From the NCBI RefSeq assembly GCF_000020225.1, contig NC_010655.1, forward strand, positions 2,280,001 through 2,312,000: a stretch of 32,000 bases of DNA, in the 5' to 3' direction. A program made the position numbers and the translations under genes. Source of the stretch: Akkermansia muciniphila ATCC BAA-835 (GTDB taxonomy: Bacteria; Verrucomicrobiota; Verrucomicrobiia; Verrucomicrobiales; Akkermansiaceae). The notes beneath the pieces were generated by a model. That model worked only from the letters and a program-made list of their open reading frames with translations. It did not search any database and had not been told where the DNA came from. Every line of letters starts with the position of its first letter. Position 1 is the first letter of the stretch. Positions 1 to 31,973 of the stretch are shown one piece after another.

Positions 1-2
1 AC

Positions 3-3049: not shown

Positions 3050-3120
3050 CGGGAGGGCCCCCGATTACAACGTTTCATGCTCCTTGCCCCGGGAACGGAA
3101 ATGGCTGCAAATGCCATTCT

Positions 3121-3670: not shown

Positions 3671-3953
3671 AGATTTCCACAACTTCCTCTTTCGTGATGG
3701 CATTGTAGGCCAGTGTTATCCCTCCGAAGCCGGAACCGGGGGCCGGAGGATTGCCCGGGTCAATGTCCTTTGCCAGCAAATCCAGCGGGTATAATTCCAG
3801 TTTGGTGCCGGGGGTGCAGAAAAATACCACGTCGGGATTGTCCCCGGTCTCGTCCGTTTTAAAACCAAGCTTGTCCCGGTAAAATTGCAGGGACTTTTTC
3901 ATGTCTATGACTCCAAGGCAGATGCCGGTTACTCTGTTCATGTTCTTCTTCAT
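3669..3953 (-). CDS. VOC (glyoxalase/bleomycin-resistance/dioxygenase) family protein, apparently truncated at the C-terminus (94 aa).
   Basis: N-terminal beta-alpha-beta-beta-beta module (VTGICLGVIDMKKSLQFYRDKLGF...ELY). The second module starts (GFGGITLAYNAITKEEVVEI) and then hits TAA. Typical single-domain VOC proteins are about 120-130 aa. Confidence 0.6.
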   Translation of the reverse strand: MKKNMNRVTGICLGVIDMKKSLQFYRDKLGFKTDETGDNPDVVFFCTPGTKLELYPLDLLAKDIDPGNPPAPGSGFGGITLAYNAITKEEVVEI

Positions 3954-4093
3954 GGAATTGGCGAATAGCCTGTTTTTCTGTTTAATGTTTTGCGGAGCCT
4001 CCGCCAGGAAAATGTGTTTTTCCCGGTTTTGTTAACGTCTGGTTTTATGGTGAAAGAAACGGAGCCGTCCGCAGGTAGTTAAGGAACCTTTTC

Positions 4094-5215: not shown

Positions 5216-5230
5216 ATTCCGGCATGGAGA

Positions 5231-5269
5231 CAAAAAACTGCCCTCCGCATCGTGTGGCGGGAGGGCAGT
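5231..5269 (-). terminator. Rho-independent terminator downstream of icd.
   Basis: 10-bp stem ACTGCCCTCC (5237-5246) / GGAGGGCAGT (5260-5269). On the minus strand it is followed by TTTTTT (plus-strand A-run 5232-5237). Confidence 0.6.
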
Positions 5270-5298
5270 CCGGATGGAAAAAGCGGGAAAAACAGGGA

Positions 5299-6546
5299 TC
5301 AGCTCAGGGTTTCCACCAGTTTGTCGCCGTAAGCGGAGCAGGTAAGTTCCGTGGAACCGGGAATCATTTCCGCAAGGTCGAACGTAACCGTTTTTTCGGA
5401 AATCACCCGGTCAATGGCCTGAATCAGCAGATCGGCGGCTTCCGTCCAGCCCATGTAGCGCAACATCATCTCCGCAGACAGGATGACGGAGCTGGGGTTG
5501 GCCTTGTTCAGTCCGGCCAGTTTCGGCCCGGTGCCGTGCGTAGCTTCAAAAATGGAATGCCCCGTCAGGTAGTTGATGTTGCCTCCGGGGGCGATTCCGA
5601 TGCCGCCGACTTGCGCCGCCAGGGCGTCGGAGATGTAATCCCCGTTCAGATTCAGCGTGGCTACCACGTCGAAGTTTTCCGGATGGAGCAGAATTTCCTG
5701 AAGGAAGGCGTCTGCAATGCAGTCCTTGATAACGATACCGTTGGGAAGTTTCAGCCAGGGGCCGTCCCCTATGGGGAGGGCGCCGTATTCCCGCCGTGCG
5801 ACATCGTATCCCCAGTCACGGAAGCCGCCTTCCGTGAATTTCATGATGTTGCCCTTATGCACCAGCGTGACGCTTTTCCTTCCGTTTTTCACGGCATAGT
5901 CAATGGCGGCGCGCACCAGGCGCTCCGTGCCTTCACGGGAAACGGGCTTGATGCCGAAGCCGGAGCTTTCCGGGAAACGAACCTTTTTCATGCGGTCCGG
6001 GAAAATGCGGCTCATGGTATCAAAAAACAGCTTGGCATCCTCCGTGCCTTCCTTGAATTCGATTCCGGCGTAGATGTCTTCCGTGTTTTCGCGGAAAACG
6101 ACCATGTCCACTTTTTCCGGAGCTTTGACGGGAGTTTCAATGCCGTTGAAATAGCGCACGGGACGCAGGCAGACAAACAGATCCAGATCCTGCCGCAGCG
6201 TGACGTTCAGGCTGCGGATGCCTCCGCCCACCGGAGTGGTGAGGGGGCCTTTGATGCCGATGAGGTACGTGCGGAAAGCTTCCACCGTTTCATTCGGAAG
6301 CCAGGTGCCCAGATTGTCAAAAGATTTCTGCCCGGCAAAAACTTCATACCATGCGATGGAACGCCTGCCCTGATAAGCCTTGGCTACGGCTGCGTCAATG
6401 ACACGGGAGGCCGCCGCCCATATCTCAGGACCGGTTCCATCACCGATGATGAAGGGAATGACGGGCCTGTCCGGAACGCAAAGCCTGCCGTTCTGCATGG
6501 TGACGGCTGCACCGTCCGCGGGAGGGGTGAATGTTAAATTGGCCAT
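5299..6546 (-). CDS. icd: NADP-dependent isocitrate dehydrogenase (415 aa).
   Basis: Motifs [51 protein letters not shown]. Length matches E. coli-type Icd. Start chosen at MANLTF (ATG at 6544-6546) rather than the upstream in-frame ATG at 6657. Confidence 0.95.
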
Positions 6547-6666
6547 GACGTGCGTTCCTTTATAGGACGCAACCCGGTTTGGCAAGATAAAAGAGCGGAA
6601 TGGGGAACTGCGCTTCGTGGAGCAACCGGCCTTGAAAATGTTTTCCTCATCCCGCATGCGCGTGTC

Positions 6667-7359
6667 TCAGAACCAGCGGTCCTTCCCGGAAGGTTCTTCC
6701 GGCCGACCGGCTTCTTCCCGGAGGCGTTTGAGGAAATTTTCTTCAGCCTGGTGTTTCAAACCGCTCTCCATGATATGCTTCCGGGCGTTTTCGTTCAGCT
6801 GGTTGACGGCAATGGCGGCATCTTCGGAAGTCAGCCTGTTCCAGATGCCGGCGTCATCCTTCACGATTCGCAGGGACCCCTCCACCATCTCACAGGAAAT
6901 CAGCTTGCCATGAAGGCCCTCTGCCGTAATGGGGCCTTTGTTTCTTGCGGGAATGATAATCCGAAGAGGTTCGGGCCCTTCCAGATTGATGCCCCCGTGG
7001 GCGCGGTAGGCCGCTTTCAGAATCAGCGTTTTCCTGCTCCACCACCAGGTGGTGGAGTAACGGTATTCATATTCAAAAGTCCGTTCCACTGTTACCAGGT
7101 TGGCCACTTTTTCATCCTTCTGCACAATCAGGGCCACGCCGCCGTGGTTGGAGGAAAAACCTTTATTGATCAGGGTGAGGCCCGCTTCCCTGCCGGCTTC
7201 AATCAGTTTTTCCGCTACAGCCATCGGCTTTTCCGCCGGGGCGGTGATGCAGGTGCGCACGCCCCAGAACAATACGGCCAGCACTCCTATCAGAACGGCA
7301 CCCCTGGCCAGCGCGACAACGGCGGGGGAATGGAAAAAGGTGGGGGAGGATCCGCTCAT
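6667..7359 (-). CDS. Membrane-anchored hypothetical protein, possibly DUF4230-like.
   Basis: 230-aa ORF with one N-terminal TM helix (AVVALARGAVLIGVLAVLFWGV) and a soluble beta-rich body. It lies 23 nt downstream of the DUF1232 gene on the same strand. Confidence 0.65.
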   Translation of the reverse strand: MSGSSPTFFHSPAVVALARGAVLIGVLAVLFWGVRTCITAPAEKPMAVAEKLIEAGREAGLTLINKGFSSNHGGVALIVQKDEKVANLVTVERTFEYEYRYSTTWWWSRKTLILKAAYRAHGGINLEGPEPLRIIIPARNKGPITAEGLHGKLISCEMVEGSLRIVKDDAGIWNRLTSEDAAIAVNQLNENARKHIMESGLKHQAEENFLKRLREEAGRPEEPSGKDRWF

Positions 7360-7382
7360 GAGATGTTGTGCGTGGCGGAAAT

Positions 7383-7670
7383 TCAGGGTTCCGGGTCTTC
7401 ATGGGAACCATGTTCCCTGATGGGGGGCATGAACAGGGCCAGGAAGGTGAAGGCAATGACGGTCAGGTCATCTATCTGTCCTACTCCCGGAATGAAATCC
7501 GGAATCAGGTCAATGGGGGAAAAGGCATAAAGAGCCGTCAGAGCCAGGAGGACAAGCTTGCGTCTGGTGAACAGGCGCGGTTCTCCTTCCCGGCTGCGGA
7601 AGTAATTGATGGCCCTGACCAGAAGCTGCTGCCTGGAGCCGTTGGGCGGAATGGGAATCTTGTTTTTCAT
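7383..7670 (-). CDS. DUF1232 (YkvA-like) small membrane protein.
   Basis: The string SPIDLIPDFIPGVGQIDDLTV matches the characteristic DUF1232 motif. 95 aa. Confidence 0.8.
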   Translation of the reverse strand: MKNKIPIPPNGSRQQLLVRAINYFRSREGEPRLFTRRKLVLLALTALYAFSPIDLIPDFIPGVGQIDDLTVIAFTFLALFMPPIREHGSHEDPEP

Positions 7671-8114
7671 GGAGATGCAGGGGTGAATTTACCGTCAATG
7701 GAAAAGAAACTCTTTTTTATATGGACCGGAAGCAGACCCGGAGGCGGGATAACGGCCCCCTTCGTCCTGCCTTGTCCCGGCAACGGCACGGGAAGGGATT
7801 TTTTTGAAGCCGTTTTCTGTAGGCGTCTTTTCATCAGGAAAGCTCTTTCCTTATTGTCTCATGCACTCCCGGCCGCGTCCAGAGCAATTCCCGGCTTCTT
7901 CCGGGAATGAGCTTCCTTGCATTTGAGAGAGAGTATAACGTTTACTTTTGTCCCTGCCGTTTTCCGAGCCTGTTTTCCCCCAGCCGCAAAAACGTTCCGC
8001 AGGGTAGAGGAGGGCTTCTTCCCCATTGGCCTGCGTTCCCTTCCCGGCAGAGGTCCGCTTGGGCTTGCGGCATTGACACGGCGGGAGGCACGGGGTACTC
8101 TCCTGCGGCATATA

Positions 8115-9485
8115 ATGATCAGTTTTACCAATATCAGCGGGGCCGAGGAAATTGGGGCCAATTGCTATTTGCTTGAGATGGACGGCACCAGGATTGTGCT
8201 TGACAGCGGGATGCACCCCAAGAAGGAGGGGAAGGCGGCCATGCCGGATTTTGATTCCCTGGAACCCAATTCCGTGGAAGCCGTTTTTTTAAGCCATTCC
8301 CACCTGGACCATCTGGGAACGCTGCCTGTGCTTCAGGAGAAACAGCCAGCGGCGGAGGTGTTCATGACGCCCGCCGCGGCAGCCCTGTCTGAAGTGATGC
8401 TGCATAATTCCGTGAATGTGATGAGCGCCAAGAGGCTGGACCTGGGCATTGTGGAGTATCCTTTTTTCACCCATAATGATCTGGACAGATTGAGCGACGC
8501 CTGGCATGCCAAGTCCTGCAATGAAGTGTTTCGCGTGGGCTTCCGCCAGAACGTGCTGGCCACGTTTTACGATGCCGGGCACATCCTGGGGTCTGCCGGC
8601 GTGATGCTGGAGGGTGAGAGCGGCCATACCGTATTTTATACGGGGGACGTGCAGTTTGAAGACCAGAGCATGATTCCCGGGGCTGATTTTCCGGAATCCG
8701 GCGTAGATACGCTGGTTATGGAGTGCACGCGCGGCGGTTTCCAGCGCAGCGCCCACTATTCCCGGCCGGAAGAGATGGTGAGGTTCGGGAAAGCGATTGC
8801 GGAGACGCTGGAACGCGGCGGCGCCGTACTGATTCCGGTATTCGCCATCGGCAAGAGCCAGGAGATGCTGTTCAACATTCACCGTTTCAAGCAGCAGGGG
8901 GTGATTCCCGCCAATACTCCCGTGTACTTCGGCGGGCTGAGCGCGAAAGTTTCCCTGTTGTACGACCGTTTTGCCGGGTTGACGCGCAGGCATGACCATG
9001 AATTCAAGCTGAAGGAGGAGATTCAGACCGTGCCCCTTCCGCGCAAGGGAAAAGCTCCGCTGGTGTGTTCCCCGGGGAATATTTATGTGGTGTCCAGCGG
9101 CATGATGACGGAAAATACGCTTTCCAACGTCATGGCGGAGCAGGTTCTTCCCCAGGAGAAGAATGCTATTTTGTTCGTAGGATATGCGGATCCTGATTCT
9201 CCGGCGGGACTGCTGAAGGCAACTCCTGAAGGGGAACTGGTGAAAATGAGGCCCAACGGGCAGCCGGTGCGCCGCAAGTGCACCGTGGACTGTTTTGATT
9301 TTTCCGGGCATGCCACCCGGGACTCCCTGGTTAATTATGCCGTGAAGCTGAACCCCAGGCAGGTGGTTCTGGTGCACGGGGACCCGGATGCCGTGGAGTG
9401 GATGCACCACACGCTATCCGCCAAAATGCCTGATTCCACCATCGTCGTTCCTGAGCCGGGACGCCGCTACACTTTCGAGCCATGA
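8115..9485 (+). CDS. MBL-fold metallo-hydrolase of the beta-CASP type, a probable RNA-metabolising nuclease (456 aa).
   Basis: HSHLDHLG (HxHxDH) motif. Beta-CASP-like middle region. C-terminal FSGHA....VLVHGD. Start chosen at MISFTNISGAEEIGAN (ATG 8115). Confidence 0.85.
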   Translation: MISFTNISGAEEIGANCYLLEMDGTRIVLDSGMHPKKEGKAAMPDFDSLEPNSVEAVFLSHSHLDHLGTLPVLQEKQPAAEVFMTPAAAALSEVMLHNSVNVMSAKRLDLGIVEYPFFTHNDLDRLSDAWHAKSCNEVFRVGFRQNVLATFYDAGHILGSAGVMLEGESGHTVFYTGDVQFEDQSMIPGADFPESGVDTLVMECTRGGFQRSAHYSRPEEMVRFGKAIAETLERGGAVLIPVFAIGKSQEMLFNIHRFKQQGVIPANTPVYFGGLSAKVSLLYDRFAGLTRRHDHEFKLKEEIQTVPLPRKGKAPLVCSPGNIYVVSSGMMTENTLSNVMAEQVLPQEKNAILFVGYADPDSPAGLLKATPEGELVKMRPNGQPVRRKCTVDCFDFSGHATRDSLVNYAVKLNPRQVVLVHGDPDAVEWMHHTLSAKMPDSTIVVPEPGRRYTFEP

Positions 9486-10102
9486 GTTTTACCGGAGAAA
9501 GAAAGGGGAGGCTGATCGTCTTTGAAGGCATTGACGGCACGGGCAAGTCCACCCACATCGGCCACTTGCGAAAGTATTTGGAGGAGAAGGAGCTGGAAGT
9601 GGTGCAGAGTTTTGAGCCCACACGCGGACGGTGGGGCCGGATGCTCCGGGACTCCGCCGTGACCGGACGCCTTTCCGTAGAGGAGGAAGTAGCCCTGTTC
9701 CTGAAAGACAGGAGGGAACATGTGAAGATGCTGATTGCTCCCGCATTGGCGCGGGGGGCATGGGTTCTGCTGGATCGCTACTATCTTTCCATGATGGCTT
9801 ACCAGGGCGCGCGCGGCATAGATCCGGAGGTTATCCGTGCCGCCAATGAAGAATTTGCCCCGGTGCCGGATGCCGTGGTCTGGCTGGACATTCCCGTTTC
9901 CGTGGCGCTGGAACGCATTGGGAACCGCGGGGAACGCGACGCTTTTGAGACGGAAGCGGGCCTGGCGGCCTGCCGCAGTGTGTTTGCATCCGTCCATGCT
10001 CCCTGGATGCTCCGCATAGACGCGGACGCCGGGAAGGAAGAGGTGGCGGCAAGAGTGCGGAAGGCTCTTTCCATGCGTTTCCCCGATGTCATTGGGGCAT
10101 AG
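9482..10102 (+). CDS. tmk: Thymidylate kinase.
   Basis: P-loop FEGIDGTGKST and DRYYLSMMAYQG motif. ATG at 9482 overlaps the upstream stop (ATGA). Confidence 0.9.
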   Translation: MSFTGERKGRLIVFEGIDGTGKSTHIGHLRKYLEEKELEVVQSFEPTRGRWGRMLRDSAVTGRLSVEEEVALFLKDRREHVKMLIAPALARGAWVLLDRYYLSMMAYQGARGIDPEVIRAANEEFAPVPDAVVWLDIPVSVALERIGNRGERDAFETEAGLAACRSVFASVHAPWMLRIDADAGKEEVAARVRKALSMRFPDVIGA

Positions 10103-10165
10103 GCATCTCCTTTCGGCCATAGGCCGGGGATTTTTCCTTAGCGTTTCATTCCTGGCATTTGGATG

Positions 10166-10837
10166 CTATTCCGCAGGCGCATAAGCCGTTGGATCCGGAA
10201 TTCCGGCTTCCCTGAAGGCTTCCCGGCGTTCCATGCAGGTGGAACAGACGCCGCAGTGGACGGCTCCGCCCTTGTAGCAGGAATAGGTACGGGAAAAGTC
10301 CACGCCCAAATCCTGGCCCATGGCGGCGATGCCGCCCTTGGACATGTGGATGAAAGGGCGCAGGATGCCCAGGCCGGCATAGGTTCCCAAGCGAATGGCT
10401 TCCGTCATGGCGGCCATGAATTCCTCCCGGCAGTCCGGATAGATGCTATGGTCCCCGGAATGGGCCGCAATGACGAGCTGCTGCGCCCCGCAGCTTTCCG
10501 CAACCCCGGCGGCGATTGACAGGAAGATGCCGTTGCGGAAGGGGACGACGGTCTGCTTCATCAGTTCTTCATCATAGGAACCGTCCGGAATATCGTCCGC
10601 GCCGGAGAGGAGGGCTGATTTCAAATGGGAGGAGATGGAGGAAATGTCAATCACGCGGTGTTCTATGCCCAGACTGGCGGCCTGCCAGGCAGCGCATTTC
10701 AGCTCTCGTTCCGCGTGGTTGGAGGCATAGTCAAAGCTGAGGGCCACCCGGACGCGGTGGTTCCGGTGGGCCCAGTGCAGGGCTACGCTGGAGTCCAATC
10801 CCCCGCTGAGCAGTACGGCTGTTTCCATTTTGTCCAT
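10166..10837 (-). CDS. queC: 7-cyano-7-deazaguanine synthase.
   Basis: PP-loop motif LLSGGLDSS. C-terminal Zn-binding cysteines CYKGGAVHCGVCSTCMERREAF. Start taken at MDKMETAV (ATG 10835-10837). Confidence 0.9.
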   Translation of the reverse strand: MDKMETAVLLSGGLDSSVALHWAHRNHRVRVALSFDYASNHAERELKCAAWQAASLGIEHRVIDISSISSHLKSALLSGADDIPDGSYDEELMKQTVVPFRNGIFLSIAAGVAESCGAQQLVIAAHSGDHSIYPDCREEFMAAMTEAIRLGTYAGLGILRPFIHMSKGGIAAMGQDLGVDFSRTYSCYKGGAVHCGVCSTCMERREAFREAGIPDPTAYAPAE

Positions 10838-10845
10838 GGTCTGGA

Positions 10846-11256
10846 TTACAGGGGGCGGTTTTCCGGATTGTGTTCGGCTGTTGCGGTCAGCTGGATGCCG
10901 CCGCGGGGGGAGAAGCGGCCTTCCACCTTCAGCCACCGCGGGGAAATGGCGGCCACCAGATCATCCGTGATGCGGTTGACGATTTGTTCATTAAAAGCCG
11001 GATAGTTGCGGTAGGCGGCCAGGTAGTATTTGAGAGATTTGGTTTCCACGCACTTTTCCGCCGGAACGTAGGTGATCGTCAGGTGACAGGAATCCGGTTG
11101 ACCGGTAACGGGGCAGAGGGAGGAAAATTCATGGGTGTCCAGCGTGATGGTGTAGGGACGCGTGCCGCGGTTAGGGAAGGATTCCAGCCTGGCGTCGTCG
11201 GGATTGGTAAAGAAGGAGCTTTGAGAGCCTAATAGAGTCAGATGGTCGTCGGACAT
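10846..11256 (-). CDS. queF: NADPH-dependent 7-cyano-7-deazaguanine reductase (unimodular type).
   Basis: Catalytic Cys motif EFSSLCPVTGQPD and QueF motif ETKSLKYYL. 136 aa. Confidence 0.9.
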   Translation of the reverse strand: MSDDHLTLLGSQSSFFTNPDDARLESFPNRGTRPYTITLDTHEFSSLCPVTGQPDSCHLTITYVPAEKCVETKSLKYYLAAYRNYPAFNEQIVNRITDDLVAAISPRWLKVEGRFSPRGGIQLTATAEHNPENRPL

Positions 11257-11281
11257 GGTTGTTGTATATGGTAATGGATGT

Positions 11282-13717
11282 TCAGGTCCCCTGGACGGGG
11301 GCTCCGCCGAGGAATTCTTTCACGTACAAGTCCTGTTGAGGGAATGGGATGGAAATGCCGTGTTCGTTGAACGCATTATAGATGTGTTCCCGCACGGAGG
11401 AAAGGCTGGAGGACTTTGTCATGACGGGAACCCAGACCCATACGCCCAGATTGACGGCACTGTCTCCGAAACTGTCCAGCACCACGCTGGTTTTCTTGAC
11501 TTTGGAAAGGAAGGGCAGGGTTGCCAGCGTTTCCAGAATGATTTTGCGCGCCCTTTCCACGTCCGTCCCGTAGGAAATGCCCACTTCCACCTTCACGCAT
11601 TCGAATTTGTGGTTGCGGGTCATGTTGCGGAAGTTCTTGTTGAAAAGCTGGGAGTTCTGGAAGGCGATGATAGAGCCGTCCAGCGTCTCGATCATGGTGG
11701 AGCGGTAGCCCAGGGAGGAGACGCGGCCCCGGTAGCCGTCGCATTCAATCATGTCGCCCTGGCGCAGGCGACCCAGCATTAGGGAGAGGCCGCTGATGAT
11801 GTTTTCAATGGTATCTTTCAGGGCGAAGCCGATGCCCATGCTCAAGCCTCCCATGACCATCAGCAGCCCGTTGTAGTTGGCGTTCATGATGATAAGCGCC
11901 GTAAAAACGAAGAGCCCCCAGAGAAAAAGGGTGGAGAGTGTCACGAAGGTGGGGATGGTGCCTACTTCATAATCTTCTCCATAGATTTCATGCAGCGTAT
12001 TTTTCCCCAAGAATATCAAGTAGTTGAGAACAATGGCCATCAGGATGACCGTGATGACGCTGCTCCAGCTGAAAGTGAGCAGATCCTTGATTTCCGTGGT
12101 TGCGAAAATTTTATTAATGATGAGGTCCCCCATGTCGAAGGTGGCGGCGGGCCAGATGATGCTGAACAGGATGAGGAAAATGGTCAGGCAGGGAAGCAGC
12201 AGCTTGGAGATGAAGGGGCGGAACCACAGGATGGCCCTCTTGTTCCGTTCCTTCCGGCGGTTTTCATAATGGTGGAGCAGATCCCACAGCCCCACCAGCA
12301 GAAGGATGCTGGTCATCAGCATGATCCAGGTCATCAGCACCAGGAAGGCCATGAAGCTGAATCCAGTCCAGCACAGGACGCTGCCCAGGATGGTGAATAC
12401 CAGAGATACGGTGGAGAAAAAACGGTCCAGCCGGGGCAGCTTGTGCCTCTGCCGCACCCAGGTCAGCAGGGAGAAGAGGGAAACCAGCGTGAACAGGATG
12501 GGCATGGAAATGTCCACGATGATGTTGGGGGCCATGAACATGCGCAGAAGCATGAAGAATCCGCCCAGAAGCAGATAGGGCATGTAGATGCGGATGCCGG
12601 AGTTAATGGTGCCATACGGAAGGCGCGTGACCAGGGAGAACAGGATGGCGCTGACCAGAAGAAGGAATTCCGCGCCCAGGGAGGCCGCGCTCTCCAGCAG
12701 GTAGTTCGGCGTGCGCAGTGAGGCAATGACGAGGATCAGCGCCACGATAAGAATGGTGGTGACGTTGGCGAAAGCATGGCGTTTGTTGTAATGCCCCGTC
12801 TTTTTCAATGTATTTCGGAATCCCAGGAAGATGATGATGCGGGAGAGGCAGTAGGAGCACAGGATGATTCCCAGCAGGATAAGTCCGTAATGCTTGAGCG
12901 TTTCCGGGTCTGACGGAAGCTGGAGCTTGCTGTCCGCGGATGTTTCCCATGCCCCCATGCACGTTTCATACGTCTTGTGCGGTTTGAGAAAGATGTACCG
13001 GGCCGCGTGGGACGGCGTGTAGAAGACCCTGTTAAACAGGGCGGTGAACAGTTTGGCGCTTTCATTGTTGAGCGCGTCTATTTTGCCGTTCAGGCTGCTG
13101 AAAAGTTCCTTGAGGTAGCTGATTTGCTCCTTTTCACTTTGGAGGGATTCTTCCAGCTCCTGGCAGGCATACAGGGCTTCGTCCCGCTGAACCAGGGAGG
13201 CTTGCGACAGGGTGTCCGTATTTACTTCCTCCAGGGATGCCGCCAGCTTTTTAATGCGTTCTATTTCCTTGTCCAGCCGTTCCTCCTGCCCCTGAAAATC
13301 CGGTTTTTGGGCGTAATACGTCTTCACCAGGCTGGAAGCGGCCTTACAGTAAAAAGCCAGCGTAAATATTTTTTGGTCGTCCAGCGCGTAAAGCACGGCG
13401 GACATTTCATACACCCTAGTATCAAAATAATTATAGGTAGCATCCGCTTCCCTCACCAGCGTTTTCCGGATGGCCATCCTTTTTTCCTCATTCTTTTTCA
13501 GAATGGTGATTTCATGGCACAGAGCCATGATTACGGTATCCATTTCCGATTGGTCCGGCTGCTCCTGAGGCTGTTCCGCCTTGGCTTCCTCCGCCTGTTC
13601 CGGGGCGGCGGCAGGCGGAGCCTCCTGCTGTGCAGATGCAGAACCTGCGGCCAGAACCCCCGCCAGGAAAAAGGCGGCGCAGCGGCGGAAAAAGATCCGG
13701 TAATCAGGGATGCTCAT
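11282..13717 (-). CDS. Large mechanosensitive ion channel of the MscS family (MscK/KefA-like). It has a signal peptide and a coiled-coil periplasmic domain.
   Basis: 811 aa. N-terminal signal-like helix, Glu/Gln-rich coiled region, about 11 TM helices. C-terminal MscS core: GLSLMLGRLRQGDMIECDGYRGRVSSLGYRSTMIETLDGSIIAFQNSQLF. Confidence 0.85.
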   Translation of the reverse strand: MSIPDYRIFFRRCAAFFLAGVLAAGSASAQQEAPPAAAPEQAEEAKAEQPQEQPDQSEMDTVIMALCHEITILKKNEEKRMAIRKTLVREADATYNYFDTRVYEMSAVLYALDDQKIFTLAFYCKAASSLVKTYYAQKPDFQGQEERLDKEIERIKKLAASLEEVNTDTLSQASLVQRDEALYACQELEESLQSEKEQISYLKELFSSLNGKIDALNNESAKLFTALFNRVFYTPSHAARYIFLKPHKTYETCMGAWETSADSKLQLPSDPETLKHYGLILLGIILCSYCLSRIIIFLGFRNTLKKTGHYNKRHAFANVTTILIVALILVIASLRTPNYLLESAASLGAEFLLLVSAILFSLVTRLPYGTINSGIRIYMPYLLLGGFFMLLRMFMAPNIIVDISMPILFTLVSLFSLLTWVRQRHKLPRLDRFFSTVSLVFTILGSVLCWTGFSFMAFLVLMTWIMLMTSILLLVGLWDLLHHYENRRKERNKRAILWFRPFISKLLLPCLTIFLILFSIIWPAATFDMGDLIINKIFATTEIKDLLTFSWSSVITVILMAIVLNYLIFLGKNTLHEIYGEDYEVGTIPTFVTLSTLFLWGLFVFTALIIMNANYNGLLMVMGGLSMGIGFALKDTIENIISGLSLMLGRLRQGDMIECDGYRGRVSSLGYRSTMIETLDGSIIAFQNSQLFNKNFRNMTRNHKFECVKVEVGISYGTDVERARKIILETLATLPFLSKVKKTSVVLDSFGDSAVNLGVWVWVPVMTKSSSLSSVREHIYNAFNEHGISIPFPQQDLYVKEFLGGAPVQGT

Positions 13718-21497: not shown

Positions 21498-21921
<424 letters not shown>

Positions 21922-24939: not shown

Positions 24940-25833
24940 ATGGATTCCTCCCTCACATTTTACCTGGTTCTGGGCGCATTGCTGCTGGGTTTCATTGTAC
25001 TCGGCATGCTGAAGGGGATGATTAAGATGCTCCTGTTCGGCGCGGCAGTGCTCTCTTCCGTAGCCGCTTACTTCTGGCTATCCAAATACGGTTTCACCTA
25101 CCTCTCTTTCATCACCAGCGACCCGCGGGAATGGATGGTCACGGTGCTGTCCGTCGGAGGCGCGGCGGCTGTCTTCTTTGTCTTTATGCACGGTCTCTTC
25201 TGGTTCAGCGACGTCTTCTCCTGGGGACGGCGCATGGGCTTCGGCGGGGCCAAGGGAATCGTCACGACGGTACTGATGGCGGCAGTCGTATGCTGGGTGG
25301 GAGTCATGTGCATCTTCTTTTACGGCTCCATGGCGGAAATGACCCGCGCCCGAGAACTGGCCCTGTACCACATGGACCCCAACCGCACCATTTCCTTACC
25401 TGCCATTTATTCCATCAAAAAGTCCATCATGGACAACCCCCACCTGAGCTGGCTGGAAAAAATATCTCCGGAGCATGATCCGGAACGGCTTTCCCTGGCA
25501 AAAATGATCGCCTACCTGGTGACGCTCAGTCCAGAGCTCTCCGACCAGCGGCGCACCCAGCTGGACTGCTATATGCCCCGTTCCCGCATTACCAGCCGCG
25601 TGCTAAGCCTGAAAAGCCTGAGCGAAGACCCCGCCATCCGCCTTCTGGTGCAGAAGGGGGATATGCAGGGCTTATATAATGATGTCAAGCTGACCCGCTT
25701 TCTGGAAGACCACGATGTCCGTTCCGTCCTGTCCCAACTGGATGTTGATCGTGTGCTGGGCTTTGTCACGGAAATTCGTCGGACGGCCCCAGCCGGAAAT
25801 GAATACATTCCCGAAGCCACGCCAATTGAGTGA
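24940..25833 (+). CDS. Hypothetical membrane protein with a CvpA-like 4-TM N-terminal half and a soluble C-terminal domain.
   Basis: 297-aa ORF. Four hydrophobic helices in the first ~130 aa, with a GMLKGMIK motif after TM1. Hydrophilic C-terminal ~160 aa. Confidence 0.65.
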   Translation: MDSSLTFYLVLGALLLGFIVLGMLKGMIKMLLFGAAVLSSVAAYFWLSKYGFTYLSFITSDPREWMVTVLSVGGAAAVFFVFMHGLFWFSDVFSWGRRMGFGGAKGIVTTVLMAAVVCWVGVMCIFFYGSMAEMTRARELALYHMDPNRTISLPAIYSIKKSIMDNPHLSWLEKISPEHDPERLSLAKMIAYLVTLSPELSDQRRTQLDCYMPRSRITSRVLSLKSLSEDPAIRLLVQKGDMQGLYNDVKLTRFLEDHDVRSVLSQLDVDRVLGFVTEIRRTAPAGNEYIPEATPIE

Positions 25834-26039: not shown

Positions 26040-26498
26040 TCAGGAGAGTTTTTCCGCGATGGCATCCACCCATTCCGGGAAGGTATCATCATGGTCTCCA
26101 TTGGAAAGCACTACCGGCAGAAGCCTTTGCGCTTTCAAACGTTCCAGGAAGGAATCGAAGTCCTTGCCAGCCTGGCAGAAGTTTTCGTAAAATTCATCTC
26201 CAAGGGCAAAAACGGCGTAGCTTACCTCGGACAAATCTTCCGAAGAGTCCTTCAATTCCTGATGGAGGGCCTCTGCGTTGGTGGGAGGTTCTCCGTCCCC
26301 CCACGTACTGGTGATGACCAGCAGCGTTCCCGCATTCTTCAACTGTTCCACCGTTATACCTTCCATGTCAACCACCTTTGCCTGATGGCCGAGCTTGGTC
26401 AATTTTGCCCGTGCGTCCTGGGCCAGACTCTCCGAATTGCCAGTTTCCGTTCCGTAGATAATAGTGATTTCCATGCGTTCTGATGATTGGTTTGACAA
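26040..26498 (-). CDS. Flavodoxin.
   Basis: FMN-binding loop IIYGTETGNSE. 152 aa, acidic. ITSTWGDGEPP motif. Confidence 0.88.
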   Translation of the reverse strand: MSNQSSERMEITIIYGTETGNSESLAQDARAKLTKLGHQAKVVDMEGITVEQLKNAGTLLVITSTWGDGEPPTNAEALHQELKDSSEDLSEVSYAVFALGDEFYENFCQAGKDFDSFLERLKAQRLLPVVLSNGDHDDTFPEWVDAIAEKLS

Positions 26499-26617: not shown

Positions 26618-27157
26618 CTACTCTCGTTTGATTATCAAAGTATTCGGATGCTGTGGAAAGGTGAAGCACCAGCCGAAAAGGCGCGCAAAACGATAGTATA
26701 ATCCCTTGCGGCAGGAATTCTGGCTGGTCATGATATCGTAAAAAGCCAGGTCAATCTGGCTTCTGGAAATGGGGGCTCCATTCATTTTGGCGTGCAGCAT
26801 GGCGTCGTGAAACAGGGAAGGGAGGAGCATATCCGGAGGGGTGGACCCCCAGGTGACGCCGTCCCAGCCATAGCCGGGAGTAATGCTGAAACGACCGCCC
26901 TCTGCCTGCATGCGTATGGATGGGTCATACACGCTGACGGCTGTCCAGCGGCCAAAATCCGCCCTTTTTCTTCCGCTGGTCCAGCTGATGGCGTTTTTAG
27001 TGATGTAGAAAGGCTTGTCTTCATAGAGGGTTCCTTCATACCAGCCGGCCACGGGTTCCGGGGCCGCAGCCGGAGTGGAGCAGGATTCCAGAAACATGGT
27101 TGCACATATTGTTGTGAACAATATGTAAATATAATGTGAATAAGAAATAAAGGGCAT
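26618..27157 (-). CDS. DUF1353-domain protein with an N-terminal signal and a possible lipoprotein Cys.
   Basis: The strings TPGYGWDGVTWGSTPP, PSLFHDAMLH and SRSQIDLAFYDIM match the DUF1353 pattern (xTDGxSxP ... HDxxY ... aDxxF). N-terminal hydrophobic segment ends in LESC. Confidence 0.7.
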   Translation of the reverse strand: MPFISYSHYIYILFTTICATMFLESCSTPAAAPEPVAGWYEGTLYEDKPFYITKNAISWTSGRKRADFGRWTAVSVYDPSIRMQAEGGRFSITPGYGWDGVTWGSTPPDMLLPSLFHDAMLHAKMNGAPISRSQIDLAFYDIMTSQNSCRKGLYYRFARLFGWCFTFPQHPNTLIIKRE

Positions 27158-27190: not shown

Positions 27191-28048
27191 TTATTGGATT
27201 TCCAGCACGATGATTTCCGGAGGGCAGCAGAAGCGCAGGGGAAGAACGCTGCATCCCAAACCGCGGGTAATGAGGAAGGGGGTTCCGTTCAGCTGGGACC
27301 AGGGATAGGAAAATTTGACCTTCTCTCGTGAGATGTTTGCCAGGGCCCTGCCTCCGGGAAGGCATATCTGGCCTCCGTGGGTATGCGCGCTGATGACGAG
27401 GTCCGCCGTGCCGGGAGCCAGCAGAGGAAAAATGTCGGGTACATGTGAAAGAAGGATATGCGGAATATCCGGGGAAAAACGCAGAGGCAATTCCTCCGGC
27501 CTGATTCTCAGGTGGTAGTCGTCCCTGACGGAAGAGAGCTGCAGCTCACGGCCTCCGGGAAGGTGCAGCAGCAGGGAATCATTCCACATGGGCAGGATGC
27601 CCAGCCCGGAAAACATGTTGCGCCATAAGTTCCAGCCGTAATACTGGTCATGGTTGCCCTGCACGGCAAAAATGCCGAGAGGGGCTTTCAACATCTTGAA
27701 ATATTCCCGGGCCGTTTCCGGGGCCATGCTGCTCTCCCTCGTGTGGCCGTTGGCATAATCCCCCAGCAGGAAAATCATATCCGGCCGAGCTTCCATGATT
27801 GTTTCCATGTACCTGTGCGCCAGATCGCCCCCGTTCGGACGCAGATGGAAATCCCCGGCAATCGCGATACGGAGGGGAGGGCTTTCTTTTCTCTTCCACT
27901 GAGGCATCTCCATCGCAGCCGTGACGGTTTCCACACGCCTGGGTTCCACCTGCCATGCCCACATGAATAAGGAGAAGCCGATCATCAATATTGGGACAAA
28001 GATAATTGCCAATTTGTTGAGAAAGGGGCGGCGTGGTCGTGACTTCAT
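27191..28048 (-). CDS. Membrane-anchored metallophosphoesterase (calcineurin-like, YaeI-like).
   Basis: Motifs IAGDFHL, LLGDYANG, QGNHD and SAHTHGGQI. N-terminal TM helix. Confidence 0.88.
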   Translation of the reverse strand: MKSRPRRPFLNKLAIIFVPILMIGFSLFMWAWQVEPRRVETVTAAMEMPQWKRKESPPLRIAIAGDFHLRPNGGDLAHRYMETIMEARPDMIFLLGDYANGHTRESSMAPETAREYFKMLKAPLGIFAVQGNHDQYYGWNLWRNMFSGLGILPMWNDSLLLHLPGGRELQLSSVRDDYHLRIRPEELPLRFSPDIPHILLSHVPDIFPLLAPGTADLVISAHTHGGQICLPGGRALANISREKVKFSYPWSQLNGTPFLITRGLGCSVLPLRFCCPPEIIVLEIQ

Positions 28049-28107: not shown

Positions 28108-28135
28108 TTGCTAATCGGGAATTTGCTGGTATGAT
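28108..28135 (+). promoter_or_regulatory. Sigma70-like promoter candidate for the IscU-like / GGGTGRT cassette.
   Basis: TTGCTA (28108-28113), 16-nt spacer, TATGAT (28130-28135). This would give a 5' UTR of about 60 nt before the ATG at 28203. Confidence 0.4.
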
Positions 28136-28202
28136 CCGTCCCGCTCAAGGTAGCGGCTGTCCGATGACTGCAGCTCTATCTTCATATTAACATCCTAATA
28201 CC

Positions 28203-28895
28203 ATGCAGTTTACACACGAAATCGAACAAATGTGTTGCGTCAAGAAAGGCTGCAACCATGGTCCGGCACCTATCCCGCAGGAAGGCAACTGGACGCAATC
28301 CAGGGAAATCACGGATATTTCCGGCCTGACCCACGGCGTGGGCTGGTGCGCTCCCCAGCAGGGCACCTGCAAACTGACGCTGAATGTCAAAAACGGCATC
28401 ATTGAAGAAGCACTCGTGGAAACCAGCGGCTGCTCCGGCATGACCCATTCCGCCGCCATGGCTGCGGAAATCCTGCCCGGCAAGACCATACTGGAAGCAA
28501 TGAACACGGACCTCGTGTGCGACGCCATCAACACCGCCATGCGCGAACTGTTCCTGCAGATCGTGTACGGCCGCACCCAGAGCGCCTTCTCTGAAGGAGG
28601 CCTTCCCATCGGCGCCGGTCTTGAAGACCTCGGCAAGGGGCTTCGCTCCCAGATCGGCACCCTGTACGGCACCCGCGCCAAGGGCCCCCGCTATTTGGAA
28701 ATGGCTGAAGGCTACATTACCAAGCTTGCCCTGGATGAAGACGGTGAAATCATCGGCTACGAGTTTGTGCGCATGGGGCCGATGATGGAAATGATCAAGA
28801 AGGGCGTGGACGCCAACGAAGCCGTCGCCAAATGCACGGGCAACTACGGTCGTTTCGACGAGGCCGCCAAGTACATCGATCCTCGTCACGAATGA
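28203..28895 (+). CDS. IscU/NifU-N-like Fe-S scaffold-domain protein with an extra N-terminal Cys/His cluster and a C-terminal extension of about 100 aa.
   Basis: GVGWCAPQQGTCKLTLNVKNGIIEEALVETSGCSGMTHSAAMAAEILPGKTILEAMN...LVCDAINTAM parallels the three-Cys IscU core. N-terminal MCCVKKGCNHG. 230 aa. Confidence 0.8.
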   Translation: MQFTHEIEQMCCVKKGCNHGPAPIPQEGNWTQSREITDISGLTHGVGWCAPQQGTCKLTLNVKNGIIEEALVETSGCSGMTHSAAMAAEILPGKTILEAMNTDLVCDAINTAMRELFLQIVYGRTQSAFSEGGLPIGAGLEDLGKGLRSQIGTLYGTRAKGPRYLEMAEGYITKLALDEDGEIIGYEFVRMGPMMEMIKKGVDANEAVAKCTGNYGRFDEAAKYIDPRHE

Positions 28896-28940
28896 GATTG
28901 AATTAAAAAGAGTATCTTAACTTCAAGCACTATTACCATT

Positions 28941-29948
28941 ATGCCTCTTTTCGAATCCTACGACCGCCGCATCAAGCAGATCAATGAAGCCCTGGCCAAA
29001 TACGGCATCGGCTCCATTGAAGAAGCGGAACAACTCTGCCTTTCCAAGGGAATCAACCCCCGTGAAATTGTGAACGGTATTCAGCCCATCGCGTTTGAAA
29101 ACGCCGGCTGGGCCTATGTGGTGGGAGCCGCCATTGCCATCAAGAAGGGCTGCACGAAGGCCGCTGACGCCGCTGAAGCCATCGGAGAAGGCCTTCAGTC
29201 CTTCTGCATTCCCGGCTCCGTTGCGGATGAACGCAAGGTGGGCCTGGGCCACGGCAACCTGGCCGCCATGCTCCTGCGCGATGAAACGGAATGCTTCTGC
29301 TTCCTGGCCGGTCACGAATCCTTTGCCGCCGCTGAAGGCGCCATCGGTATTGCCAAGTCCGCCAACCGCGTCCGCAAACAGGATCTCCGCGTTTGCCTGA
29401 ACGGCCTCGGCAAGGATGCCGCGTACATCATCTCCCGCATCAACGGGTTCACGTACGTGCAAACCAAGTTTGACTATGCCACGGGCAAGCTGAACATCAT
29501 CCAGGAGAAAGCTTTCTCCAAGGGTCCCAAAGCCGCCGTGCGCGTGTACGGCTGCGATGACGTGCGCGAAGGCGTGGCTGTCATGTGGAATGAAGGCGTG
29601 GATGTTTCCATTACCGGGAACTCCACCAACCCCACCCGCTTCCAGCACCCGGTAGCCGGCACCTATAAAAAGGAATGCAATGAGAAGGGCAAGAAGTACT
29701 TCTCCGTGGCTTCCGGCGGCGGCACGGGCCGTACCCTGCACCCGGACAACATGGCGGCCGGTCCCGCTTCCTACGGCATGACTGATACCATGGGCCGCAT
29801 GCACTCCGACGCCCAGTTCGCCGGTTCTTCCTCCGTGCCCGCCCATGTGGAAATGATGGGCCTCATCGGCATGGGCAACAACCCGATGGTCGGCGCTTCC
29901 GTAGCGGTGGCCGTGGCTGTTGAAGAAGCCGCCAAGCAGAACGCCTGA
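28941..29948 (+). CDS. GGGtGRT-motif protein, a conserved family of unknown function.
   Basis: 335-aa ORF with SVASGGGTGRTLHPDN (GGGTGRT encoded at 29715-29735). Conserved-looking Cys/His sites: GLGHGN, ECFCFLAGHESF, YGCDD. Confidence 0.8.
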   Translation: MPLFESYDRRIKQINEALAKYGIGSIEEAEQLCLSKGINPREIVNGIQPIAFENAGWAYVVGAAIAIKKGCTKAADAAEAIGEGLQSFCIPGSVADERKVGLGHGNLAAMLLRDETECFCFLAGHESFAAAEGAIGIAKSANRVRKQDLRVCLNGLGKDAAYIISRINGFTYVQTKFDYATGKLNIIQEKAFSKGPKAAVRVYGCDDVREGVAVMWNEGVDVSITGNSTNPTRFQHPVAGTYKKECNEKGKKYFSVASGGGTGRTLHPDNMAAGPASYGMTDTMGRMHSDAQFAGSSSVPAHVEMMGLIGMGNNPMVGASVAVAVAVEEAAKQNA

Positions 29949-29972
29949 GCGAGCAGCTGAGCAAAAAATCGC

Positions 29973-30008
29973 AGAGCCGCTTTCCCGATTTGGGAAAGCG
30001 GCTCTTTT
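29973..30008. terminator. Strong bidirectional terminator between the GGGTGRT gene and the convergent secreted-protein gene.
   Basis: Perfect 14-bp stem AGAGCCGCTTTCCC (29973-29986) / GGGAAAGCGGCTCT (29992-30005), followed by TTT. An A6 run at 29963-29968 provides the U-tract for the minus strand. Confidence 0.75.
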
Positions 30009-30666: not shown

Positions 30667-30839
30667 GATTGTTGGCACGATAACATGATTCCTCGTTTTG
30701 GAAAGGCCTTTCTTCCGGCATGTTTTGCGCAGGGCCGGACTCCGTTTCCCTTGCGGATAAAGGAAAGGTTCTCCATTCCGCACCCCGGAGCAACTTGACG
30801 GAAAGTCCGGAGTGCCGTATGCTGGACGGGACCTGCTAT

Positions 30840-31973
30840 ATGACCCGGAACGAGCCATCATCCCTTCCAGCTCCGCAGATGGAGGAAGATCCCAGATTCC
30901 TGACGGAACAAATTGTAACCTATTTGGGCAATAAGCGTTCCCTTCTTCATTTTCTGGGGACGGGGCTGGAACAGGTGAAAAAACGCCTGGGTAAGGAAAG
31001 GCTGAAAGCAGGGGATCTTTTTTCCGGCAGCGGCATTGTGGCGCGTTTTCTGAAACAGCATTCGGAAGACTTGATCGTCAATGATCTGGAGGAATACAGC
31101 CGGGTCGTCAATACCTGTTACCTGAGCAACGCGGAGGAAGTGGAAAATCTGGAGCTGGACAGACATTACAGACGCCTGCTGCGGTATATGGAAACGCATG
31201 AATCCCCTGGCTTCATCACGGAACTGTACGCTCCCAGAAATCCGGACTGCATCACGGCGGATGACCGCGTTTTCTATACGCGCCGCAACGCCGTGTACCT
31301 GGATACGGCGAGGCAGACCATCAATTTGCTTCCGGCAGAAGTCAGGCCCTATTTTATCGCTCCTCTTCTGGCGGAAGCTTCCGTCCACACAAACACATCC
31401 GGCGTATTCAAAGGTTTTTACAAAGACAGGAACGGAATCGGCAAATTCGGGGGAACGGGAGGCAACGCCCTTTCCCGCATTCTGGGAGAAATTTCGCTGC
31501 CGTTTCCCGTGTTTTCCCGGTTTGACTGCCGGTATTCCATCCATTGCCGTGACGCCAATGAACTGGCTGCCGAGCTGCCGGAAATGGATGTGGTGTACCT
31601 GGACCCTCCCTATAACCAGCATCCGTACGGTTCCAATTATTTCATGCTGAATTTGCTGTCTTCTTATGAAAAGCCGGAGGAAACCAGCCGAGTTTCCGGC
31701 ATTCCCGCAGATTGGAAACGTTCCACGTACAATAGCCGCCAGCATGCTCCGGAGGCCCTGTTCCGGCTGCTGGAGGATTGCCCGGCCAAATTTATTCTGC
31801 TTTCCTACAGCTCGGAGGGGTTCATCAACTATGAGGAGATGACCGGTTTCCTTGGACGCCTGGGCCATACCGTTACGCTGGAAACGCCGTACGCCGCGTT
31901 CCGGGGCAGCCGGAATTTCAGAAACCGTCCTCAGAACGTGACGGAATTCCTGTTCCTGGTGGAACGGTTTTAA
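30840..31973 (+). CDS. N6-adenine DNA methyltransferase, D12/Dam-like class (alpha motif order).
   Basis: Motifs YLGNKRSLL, AdoMet-binding DLFSGSGIVARFL and catalytic VVYLDPPYNQHPY, plus ILLSYSSEGF. The start is uncertain: ATG at 30840, or in-frame ATGs at 30819 and 30879. Confidence 0.8.
   Translation: MTRNEPSSLPAPQMEEDPRFLTEQIVTYLGNKRSLLHFLGTGLEQVKKRLGKERLKAGDLFSGSGIVARFLKQHSEDLIVNDLEEYSRVVNTCYLSNAEEVENLELDRHYRRLLRYMETHESPGFITELYAPRNPDCITADDRVFYTRRNAVYLDTARQTINLLPAEVRPYFIAPLLAEASVHTNTSGVFKGFYKDRNGIGKFGGTGGNALSRILGEISLPFPVFSRFDCRYSIHCRDANELAAELPEMDVVYLDPPYNQHPYGSNYFMLNLLSSYEKPEETSRVSGIPADWKRSTYNSRQHAPEALFRLLEDCPAKFILLSYSSEGFINYEEMTGFLGRLGHTVTLETPYAAFRGSRNFRNRPQNVTEFLFLVERF

Follow-up and report, generated by a model that had tools for sequence, protein, structure and literature searches.

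A 32,000-nucleotide (nt) stretch of Akkermansia muciniphila ATCC BAA-835 DNA (NCBI RefSeq assembly GCF_000020225.1, contig NC_010655.1, positions 2,280,001 to 2,312,000 of the forward strand; referred to here as the window) carries a two-gene cassette encoding a NifU-like protein (open reading frame 1, ORF1) and a protein of the GGGtGRT family (ORF2). We propose, with a probability of about 0.5, that these proteins assemble as partner subunits into an obligate heteromeric, iron-dependent metalloprotein complex found widely among anaerobic bacteria. The GGGtGRT family is catalogued as PF14057, and its pairing with a NifU-like protein is already present in genome annotations and in two papers, so the cassette is not new as an object.

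The two genes, separated by 45 nt, form an insulated, self-contained bicistronic unit. An earlier note on this DNA had described the unit from the letters alone, and its ORF coordinates, intergenic gap, promoter-like site, hairpin and opposite-strand flanks are all borne out (Table 1), as are the motifs that it quoted (MCCVKKGCNHG at residues 10–20, GWC, SGCSGMTHSAAMA and LVCDAI in ORF1, and GGGTGRT at nt 29715–29735 in ORF2). The start codon of ORF1 is backed by an N terminus conserved across phyla (M1, E6 and M10), and RefSeq labels the protein (AMUC_RS10155) an iron–sulfur (Fe–S) cluster assembly scaffold or NifU protein. The scan that located the promoter-like site returned 2 sites, against 1.0 ± 1.1 in shuffled sequences, and is not significant alone; comparable hexamers nevertheless occur at the aligned position ahead of the gene in three other Akkermansiaceae loci (L004, L005 and L007). 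The hairpin downstream of ORF2 has a folding energy of −28.8 kcal/mol (z = −5.97; 0 of 200 shuffles as stable). Its stem is followed by only four U on the + strand, and the longer T-run is that of the − strand. Its probable role is bidirectional termination between the convergent genes. No RNA element was found within or around the cassette in a search of Rfam.

Table 1 Features of the cassette and its flanks, in window coordinates
Feature	Position (nt)	Strand	Basis
ORF1, NifU-like subunit, 230 residues	28203–28895	+	ORF call
ORF1 IscU-fold core, residues 37–119	28311–28559	+	NifU_N, profile, Foldseek, conservation
ORF1 core ligand candidates C49, C56, C77, C106	28347–28349; 28368–28370; 28431–28433; 28518–28520	+	
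ORF1 conserved segment after the core, residues 120–170	28560–28712	+	Identity, predicted local distance difference test (pLDDT)
ORF1 C-terminal small α/β domain, residues 171–230	28713–28892	+	pLDDT about 70–80
ORF2, GGGtGRT protein, 335 residues	28941–29948	+	ORF call, Pfam
ORF2 N-terminal all-helical domain, residues 1–112, with invariant GHG (H104)	28941–29276	+	AlphaFold2, conservation
ORF2 Rossmann-like α/β domain, residues ~113–258, with invariant GHES (H125–S127), GLGK (155–158) and GNST (226–229)	29277–29714	+	AlphaFold2
ORF2 ultra-conserved Gly/Ser/His-rich segment, residues 259–298, GGGTGRTLHPDN...SYGMTD...GRMHSDAQFAGSSS	29715–29834	+	Conservation
ORF2 C-terminal helices, residues ~299–335, with invariant H302, GNNP motif and Ala/Val-rich tail	29835–29945	+	AlphaFold2, conservation
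Promoter-like site: TTGCTA, 16-nt spacer, TATGAT, with TG ahead of the −10 hexamer	28108–28135	+	Scan, 9/12 consensus matches
Perfect hairpin of 14 pairs, probable bidirectional intrinsic terminator	29973–30005		Folding
Flanking gene, metallophosphoesterase	27191–28048	−	Opposite strand to the pair
Flanking gene without known identity	end at 30076	−	Opposite strand to the pair

Distribution and pairing

The family was searched for with HMMER among 1.84 billion cluster representatives and in a set with a single genome for each GTDB species. When clustered at 50% identity, GGGtGRT proteins form essentially one cluster, the representative of which is identical to the query. A single genuine divergent full-length cluster (P0157) is 51% identical, and the remaining matches are fragments, frameshifts or chimeras; P0209 and P0267, which were considered as further members of the divergent branch, are frameshifted main-clade copies. 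The exact ORF2 sequence is present in 21,494 blocks of a public collection, and the closest matches of ORF1 are Akkermansia proteins; the two proteins of the window are ordinary members of their families.

At least 594 GTDB species carry the family, and the locus analyses described here use the best 80 of these, in which the ORF2 homologs are 74–86% identical to the Akkermansia protein. The main clade spans Verrucomicrobiota, Kiritimatiellia, Bacillota (including Negativicutes and Erysipelotrichaceae), Bacteroidota, Spirochaetota, Desulfobacterota, Myxococcota, Planctomycetota and Actinomycetota, with at least nine bacterial phyla represented overall, and the pair is found in the gut genera Akkermansia, Bacteroides, Faecalibacterium, Roseburia, Clostridium, Alistipes and Treponema. 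The sole locus assigned to an archaeon (L083, Methanobrevibacter bin RUG236, 1–12948) has neighbours of bacterial type (an SstT transporter, a GlnH-like binding protein, NAD kinase and malate dehydrogenase) and is probably a bacterial, mis-binned contig; archaeal occurrence was rejected.

The earlier note had made conservation of the gene pair in other genomes central to its proposal, and the two genes are indeed neighbours across phyla. An ORF1 homolog lies directly upstream of ORF2 on the same strand in 77 of the 77 main-clade loci with upstream sequence, at a gap of 9–230 nt; most of these homologs are full length, and they are 70–87% identical. The other 3 of the 80 loci carry at most 70 nt of upstream sequence and were left out of this count. 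A divergent branch, 51–54% identical and represented by four loci (L084, L087, L088 and L089), retains an ORF1-like gene upstream in all four, where it overlaps the start of the GGGtGRT gene; the ORF1-like protein of L084 is 54% identical.

Beyond the pair itself, no third gene recurs in the 80 main-clade loci: the largest homologous cluster comprises 5 of 258 flanking ORFs, in mixed positions, and the 61 close neighbours on the same strand match 85 Pfam families, none of them in more than two loci. There is no cysteine desulfurase among the 25 neighbour families listed, and no assembly gene of the ISC, NIF or SUF systems recurs beside the pair. Natural ORF1–ORF2 fusions were considered as evidence for a complex and rejected, each unusually long protein being an assembly chimera or an internal tandem-repeat artefact. 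These long homologs (P0122, P0271, P0008, P0105, P0021, P0131 and P0192) contain tandem repeats or unrelated N termini, and a likely cause is that near-identical genes in co-occurring species make assembly graphs loop or cross.

Evolutionary constraint

Both proteins are nearly as similar between phyla as within them. Over 24 taxa, ORF2 has a mean between-phylum identity of 0.79 (0.73–0.86) and ORF1 of 0.76 (0.64–0.83), and the within-phylum values are barely higher (0.82 and 0.80, respectively). At four-fold degenerate sites the identity is about 0.31 for ORF2 and 0.30 for ORF1, so that these sites are saturated, and GC content at third codon positions (GC3) ranges from 0.14 to 0.87, following the GC of each host locus. 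Because the four-fold sites are saturated and GC3 is host-like, the identity of the proteins is attributed to ancient purifying selection; recent horizontal transfer is ruled out as its source by the same saturation and by the host-ameliorated GC3. ORF1 and ORF2 have also diverged in step, their pairwise distances being correlated (Mantel r = 0.60, a value reached in 0 of 2000 permutations).

The GGGtGRT protein

Profile searches were run on both proteins, with a clear outcome for ORF2: the match to PF14057 covers profile positions 1–327 of 327 at 643.5 bits (cutoff 27), in agreement with the family assignment of the earlier note. No NCBIfam model matches the protein. The AlphaFold2 model (pLDDT 77.9, predicted template modelling score (pTM) 0.81) comprises a helical domain (residues 1–112), a Rossmann-like domain (about 118–257) and C-terminal helices (299–334), and the 40-residue segment 259–298 that precedes these last helices has a pLDDT below 50.

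This segment is the most conserved element of ORF2, with a mean identity of 0.99 and 95% of its columns at least 95% conserved among the 80 species, and it is invariant in the divergent clade too. Spanning its start is SGGGTGRTLHPDN (residues 258–270), in which the GGGTGRT motif is invariant in the 80 species and in the divergent branch. The earlier note had suggested that this Gly-rich loop could bind phosphate or a nucleotide, and its conservation is compatible with such a role. On direct reading it does not follow the Walker A pattern GxxxxGK[ST], as ASGGGTGRT has Arg in place of Lys and a different spacing, and Pfam scans assign no P-loop family to ORF2. Resemblances to other motifs (the PEP-utilizer phospho-histidine site GGxTxH, PFK/NAD-kinase GGDGT, PP-loop SGGxDS, and nucleotidyltransferase HxGH and ISSTxxR) are no more than leads; none fits exactly and none has support from a search.

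The residues invariant in the 80 main-clade and four divergent sequences are H104, H125-E126-S127, K158, R166, N227-S228-T229, K244, S258, T262, R264, T265, H267, D269, S277-Y278, T281-D282, R286, H288, Q292, S296–S298, H302 and N313-N314. No Cys of ORF2 is universally conserved in this set. The main clade keeps C89 and C118 (the first Cys of ECFCF) without exception, but the divergent branch has lost both, and C120 (the second Cys of ECFCF), C205 (in YGCDDV) and C152 are kept in 21%, 10% and 3% of sequences, respectively. The Cys/His sites to which the earlier note had drawn attention are upheld for their histidines and not for C118, C120 or C205. Lacking a universal Cys, ORF2 cannot be a classical Cys-ligated Fe–S client.

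Structural comparison places ORF2 apart from known proteins. A Foldseek search of the model against the Protein Data Bank (PDB) returned 0 matches at E ≤ 0.001, the best having E = 0.037 and a TM-score of 0.23 on the query, and the matches are generic Rossmann-like proteins (carboxyspermidine dehydrogenase, phosphofructokinase, universal stress proteins and UDP-GlcNAc 2-epimerase). Against the same database, phmmer gave 0 matches at E ≤ 10 and a profile search one chance match (E = 0.93); in segment-wise Pfam scans at E ≤ 10, the domains of ORF2 match only PF14057. By sequence, profile and fold, ORF2 is unlike every characterised protein with which it was compared.

The NifU-like protein

For ORF1 the profile evidence lies close to the threshold. 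Pfam NifU_N scores 21.6 bits on the full protein (residues 57–113) and 23.2 bits on the N-terminal domain alone (cutoff 22), and the IscU, NifU and SufU equivalogs of NCBIfam score 20–26 bits against cutoffs of 92–192, with SufU (TIGR01994) at 21 bits against 92.5. A profile built from 21 diverse ORF1 homologs matches the IscU structure 4eb5_C with E = 6e-5 over residues ~49–114 only, and Foldseek matches the N-terminal domain of the ORF1 model to IscU, ISCU and SufU, with probability up to 1.0 and a TM-score of about 0.5 on target length. These three lines of evidence agree with the IscU/NifU-like core recognised in the earlier note. As the monomer model is poor (pLDDT 52, pTM 0.38, with residues 120–170 below a pLDDT of 50), the evidence that ORF1 adopts the IscU three-dimensional fold is moderate.

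The putative metal ligands of this core differ from those of IscU. In the profile alignment to IscU structures, C77 aligns with IscU Cys63 and is the sole canonical ligand to do so; the positions of IscU Cys37 and Asp39 are occupied by Gln and by Gly or Ala, and C106 falls in an earlier helix instead of at the HC106 motif of IscU. The LPPVK-type chaperone-binding segment that precedes the last Cys is a defining motif of IscU, and neither it nor LPPxKxHC is found in the ORF1 sequence or profile alignment. H44, C49, C56, C77, C106 and D107 are invariant in 70 sequences and in the four of the divergent branch, so the conservation that the earlier note had anticipated for the core Cys is found. 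Its N-terminal CCxxxxC cluster fares differently, being a lineage-specific trait: 77% of sequences retain C11, 40% C12 and 7% C17. The divergent branch also lacks H19 and H82.

Mean identity among the 70 species is 0.90 in the core, 0.86 in residues 120–170 and lowest, at 0.65, in residues 171–230. The roughly 110 C-terminal residues (120–230) match no family in segment-wise Pfam scans at E ≤ 10. Residues 120–170, conserved beyond the core, are a candidate interface element. There are weak Foldseek matches of ORF1 to lipoate-ligase entries, reported with no aligned residues, and these may correspond to the small domain at residues 171–230.

Abundance and iron response

None of the 13 papers that name GGGtGRT characterises the family or assigns it a function, as the earlier note had supposed, and the name never occurs in a title or abstract; a 2025 paper in which an antibody to the protein was raised calls its role unclear (PMC12078515). 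The pair is prominent in expression data. In Bacteroides thetaiotaomicron it is annotated as BT0173 (GGGtGRT) and BT0174 (NifU), and the two co-regulated genes drop 11- to 12.8-fold under iron limitation (PMC10434189). In Clostridium pasteurianum, GGGtGRT is 7.1-fold up under iron excess in exponential phase and has the same column pattern as [FeFe]-hydrogenase-1 (PMC5395762). High in vivo expression of GGGtGRT is reported for Bacteroides, Megamonas, Megasphaera, Blautia and Succinatimonas (PMC11204068), and in the rumen NifU and GGGtGRT group with GAPDH, PPDK and PEPCK, being higher before feeding (PMC7035244). Of the spectra in the core human gut metaproteome, 1.0% come from a NifU homolog (COG0822), compared with 0.9% from GroEL (PMC3261163); this top-ranking 'NifU homolog' may largely be the ORF1-type protein and not an assembly scaffold.

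A regulatory phenotype is also on record. Transposon insertions in BT0173-4 were recovered, together with pfkA and an M16 peptidase locus, in a screen for lost glucose-dependent silencing of the regulator Cur, and in BT0173-4::Tn the silencing in glucose is incomplete, with an effect of 2-fold, against 4.5-fold for pfkA, in the same direction (bioRxiv 10.64898/2026.04.10.717545).

Genes beside the divergent pairs

The divergent-branch pair sits in tighter operons than the main-clade pair. In L084 the gene order is a helix–turn–helix (HTH) regulator, ApgM, a membrane-like protein of no known identity, the pair, a second such unassigned protein and a His_Phos_1 phosphatase/mutase; the ApgM-type cofactor-independent phosphoglycerate mutase scores 499.7 bits, above the equivalog cutoff of 489. 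In L087 the order is His_Phos_1, HTH, ApgM, a phosphoglycolate-phosphatase-like HAD protein and the pair, and in L088 the pair is followed by the same unassigned protein as in L084 and by a GpmI-type phosphoglycerate mutase (617 bits). L089 has none of the mutase, phosphatase or HTH neighbours of these three loci. Two families of apparently membrane-associated proteins, with no Pfam or NCBIfam match, lie beside the divergent pairs (L084 4392–5306 and 6992–7972; L088 2839–3837; L089 4528–5631).

Two unrelated kinds of phosphoglycerate mutase thus stand by the pair in two independent lineages, which is suggestive and fits the direction of the B. thetaiotaomicron screen. A link of the pair to 3-phosphoglycerate, 2-phosphoglycerate or phosphoenolpyruvate (PEP) is a tentative hypothesis, and rather unlikely. 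We hold an equally speculative view of its extended form, in which the pair would be an unrecognised class of abundant, iron-dependent two-subunit enzyme, with an IscU-derived four-Cys subunit and a catalytic subunit of new fold, acting at the 3-phosphoglycerate/2-phosphoglycerate/PEP node. If true, gut anaerobes would have a hitherto unrecognised reaction or bypass in their central carbon metabolism.

Interpretation

In the complex that we favour, ORF1 would be a strongly derived IscU-fold subunit in which the four invariant Cys plus H44 and D107 most likely bind a permanent Fe–S or other metal centre. ORF2 would contribute an architecture that is new overall, with a helical domain, a Rossmann-like α/β domain and a near-immutable 40-residue segment rich in Gly, Ser, His, Asp and Arg. 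This segment most likely forms a ligand, phosphate or nucleotide site, and probably becomes ordered only on binding ORF1 or a cofactor. It and residues 120–170 of ORF1 are highly conserved and are exactly the segments that the monomer models cannot place; because they are conserved yet unplaced in the monomers, we infer that they fold only against each other or against a cofactor. The complex would probably be a very abundant enzyme or redox protein, the synthesis of which is tuned to iron supply, and its substrate class is hinted at only faintly, the pointers being to phosphorylated three-carbon intermediates of lower glycolysis.

Several observations weigh against this proposal. The three-dimensional grouping of the four ORF1 Cys is not readable from a monomer model with a pLDDT of 52, and an expression level that follows iron would also fit a storage or carrier role. 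The best 80 of at least 594 loci are a sample biased to close relatives, and the main-clade neighbourhoods hold no functional signal; an apparent enrichment there of enolase (3 of 80 loci, within 6 kb) and GpmI (1 of 80) was dismissed, since tyrosyl-tRNA synthetase is a neighbour in 4 of 80. The mutase link of the divergent branch amounts to two independent occurrences among three lineages; it was recognised only after the fact, and a rough estimate of its probability by chance is about 0.1. Finally, BT0173-4::Tn mutants grow normally in glucose and show only the 2-fold regulatory effect (bioRxiv 10.64898/2026.04.10.717545), so the complex is not an essential glycolytic step in B. thetaiotaomicron.

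The main rival, which we consider unlikely, is a module for the carriage, storage or repair of iron or Fe–S clusters, in which ORF1 would act as an abundant, IscU-like cluster store or donor serving the very large Fe–S proteome of anaerobes and ORF2 as a nucleotide-dependent partner for loading or release, by analogy with IscU and HscA/HscB or with Mrp/Nbp35-type NTPases. Such a module would account for the IscU fold of ORF1, the high abundance (PMC3261163), the tracking of iron supply, and the Gly-rich loop and Rossmann-like domain of ORF2; dispensability in vitro would be expected beside a redundant SUF system, and many client interactions could explain the extreme conservation. It sits poorly with the absence from ORF1 of the canonical labile-cluster ligand set and the LPPVK segment, with four invariant Cys that suggest a fully ligated, permanent centre, and with the lack of any desulfurase, ferredoxin or A-type carrier gene recurring nearby. 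Nor is ORF2 a P-loop protein, as GGGTGRT does not fit GxxxxGK[ST], and it matches no known ATPase in Pfam, in PDB sequence and profile searches or with Foldseek. Abundance bears on the model of the earlier note too, which made ORF1 a dedicated metallocluster scaffold and ORF2 its client enzyme. High abundance and expression that tracks iron are the behaviour of iron-consuming enzymes, not of a scaffold–client pair. The two proteins reach high levels in proteomes (PMC3261163, PMC11204068), where a scaffold would be expected in catalytic amounts, and their expression is repressed when iron is limiting (PMC10434189) and raised when it is supplied (PMC5395762). For this reason, and because no assembly genes are associated with the pair, ORF2 has no conserved cluster ligands and ORF1 departs from IscU in most features (only the Cys63 equivalent aligned, no LPPVK-HC, equivalog scores far below cutoff and no recurring desulfurase), we regard the model as quite unlikely. 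Strict gene adjacency, the IscU-like core of ORF1 and the invariance of C89 and C118 of ORF2 in the main clade speak for it; those two Cys are lost in the divergent branch though the pair is kept, and the whole core of ORF1 is as constrained as ORF2.

An abundant pair without catalytic activity, serving a structural, regulatory or stress role and conserved through high expression and multiple interfaces, would fit the extreme conservation, the expression level, the lack of a growth defect in mutants and the absence of an enzyme fold match. We think it very unlikely, as the conserved residues cluster in motifs built of His, Asp, Arg, Ser and Gly and at four Cys positions, a pattern typical of catalytic or metal sites and not of surfaces. 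The least probable of the readings is sulfur transfer or thiolation, with ORF1 as a SufU/SufE-like persulfide or Zn-dependent carrier and ORF2 as an ATP-using sulfur-insertion enzyme with a domain like that of universal stress proteins (USPs) or PP-loop proteins; ORF2 might then be sacrificial, which would explain its abundance. SufU has the fold in common and is among the Foldseek and hidden Markov model matches of ORF1, but at 21 bits against an equivalog cutoff of 92.5, and the USP matches of ORF2, which have TM-scores as high as 0.48 on target length and E > 0.2, fall short of significance. SGGGTG loosely resembles the PP-loop motif SGGxDS, a likeness that is inexact and backed by no search. 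No cysteine desulfurase lies nearby, and the strong iron dependence of expression is left unexplained by this reading.

Other features of the window

On the strand opposite to the iron-induced pair, 1.7 kb upstream of it, is a flavodoxin gene (26040–26498, − strand). Cells short of iron classically use flavodoxin in place of ferredoxin; the proximity was seen in Akkermansia (in the window and in three near-identical loci of A. muciniphila) and may be accidental. Two ORFs with no Pfam match are located between the chorismate synthase and metallophosphoesterase genes, at 24940–25833 (+ strand, 297 residues) and 26618–27157 (− strand, 179 residues), which are also called in the Akkermansia loci L001–L003, where the second has 159 residues. 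Further upstream, bacterial RNase P RNA class A (RF00010) occupies 21501–21920 (+ strand; 198 bits, full model matched). Downstream of the cassette is a D12-class N6-adenine DNA methyltransferase (30720–31973, + strand; the site is listed together with L001 9059–9946), followed just beyond the window by a gene of the phage-integrase family; a small mobile or restriction-modification island may exist there.

Comparison with known systems

Few protein pairs of anaerobic bacteria that still lack a function, a structure and a mechanism are as conserved and as abundant as this one, which stands out in gut and rumen metaproteomes and responds strongly to iron. The role of the complex would fill a visible gap in anaerobe physiology, whether in central metabolism, iron economy or redox stress, and solving it would probably define a new use of the IscU fold together with a new enzyme fold. 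A family named by its motif has become tractable, with defined subunits, invariant ligand candidates, viable B. thetaiotaomicron mutants, iron regulation and a metabolic hypothesis.

One system that resembles the pair in outline is the Fe–S L-serine dehydratase SdaAB/SdaAA, which is likewise made of a small and a larger subunit encoded by adjacent genes, is iron-dependent and typical of anaerobes, and acts near the 3-phosphoglycerate/serine node. The resemblance is one of analogy only, as Pfam scans of ORF1 and ORF2 show no serine dehydratase family. For ORF2, the nearest fold matches are USP, phosphofructokinase and NAD(P)-dehydrogenase domains (USP E = 0.23–0.5, TM-score 0.39–0.48 on target length). 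Residues 113–258 have in common with USP/HUP-class and Rossmann-like domains a three-layer α/β arrangement with Gly-rich loops after β-strands. They differ in that the TM-score on the query is at most 0.28 and no sequence or profile similarity was found, and such domains offer no equivalent of the helical domain beside it or of the invariant segment of 40 residues.

ORF1 shares the IscU-type fold with SufU/SufE, SufU being a weak match in sequence and structure, but it is accompanied by no SufS partner gene and has a different ligand pattern. With the IscU/NifU_N scaffolds (PF01592) it has in common the fold of residues 37–119 and the Cys of GC(S/A)G, equivalent to IscU Cys63. It differs from them in the new invariant C49, C56 and C106, in about 110 extra residues after the core, in scores that are roughly 10% of the cutoffs (TIGR01999 and TIGR03419), in having no adjoining desulfurase gene, and in being very abundant and repressed by iron limitation. 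The closest known system is the GGGtGRT/NifU-like pair of other bacteria, such as BT0173–BT0174, which is of the same family and arrangement and has no essential difference from the pair of the window.

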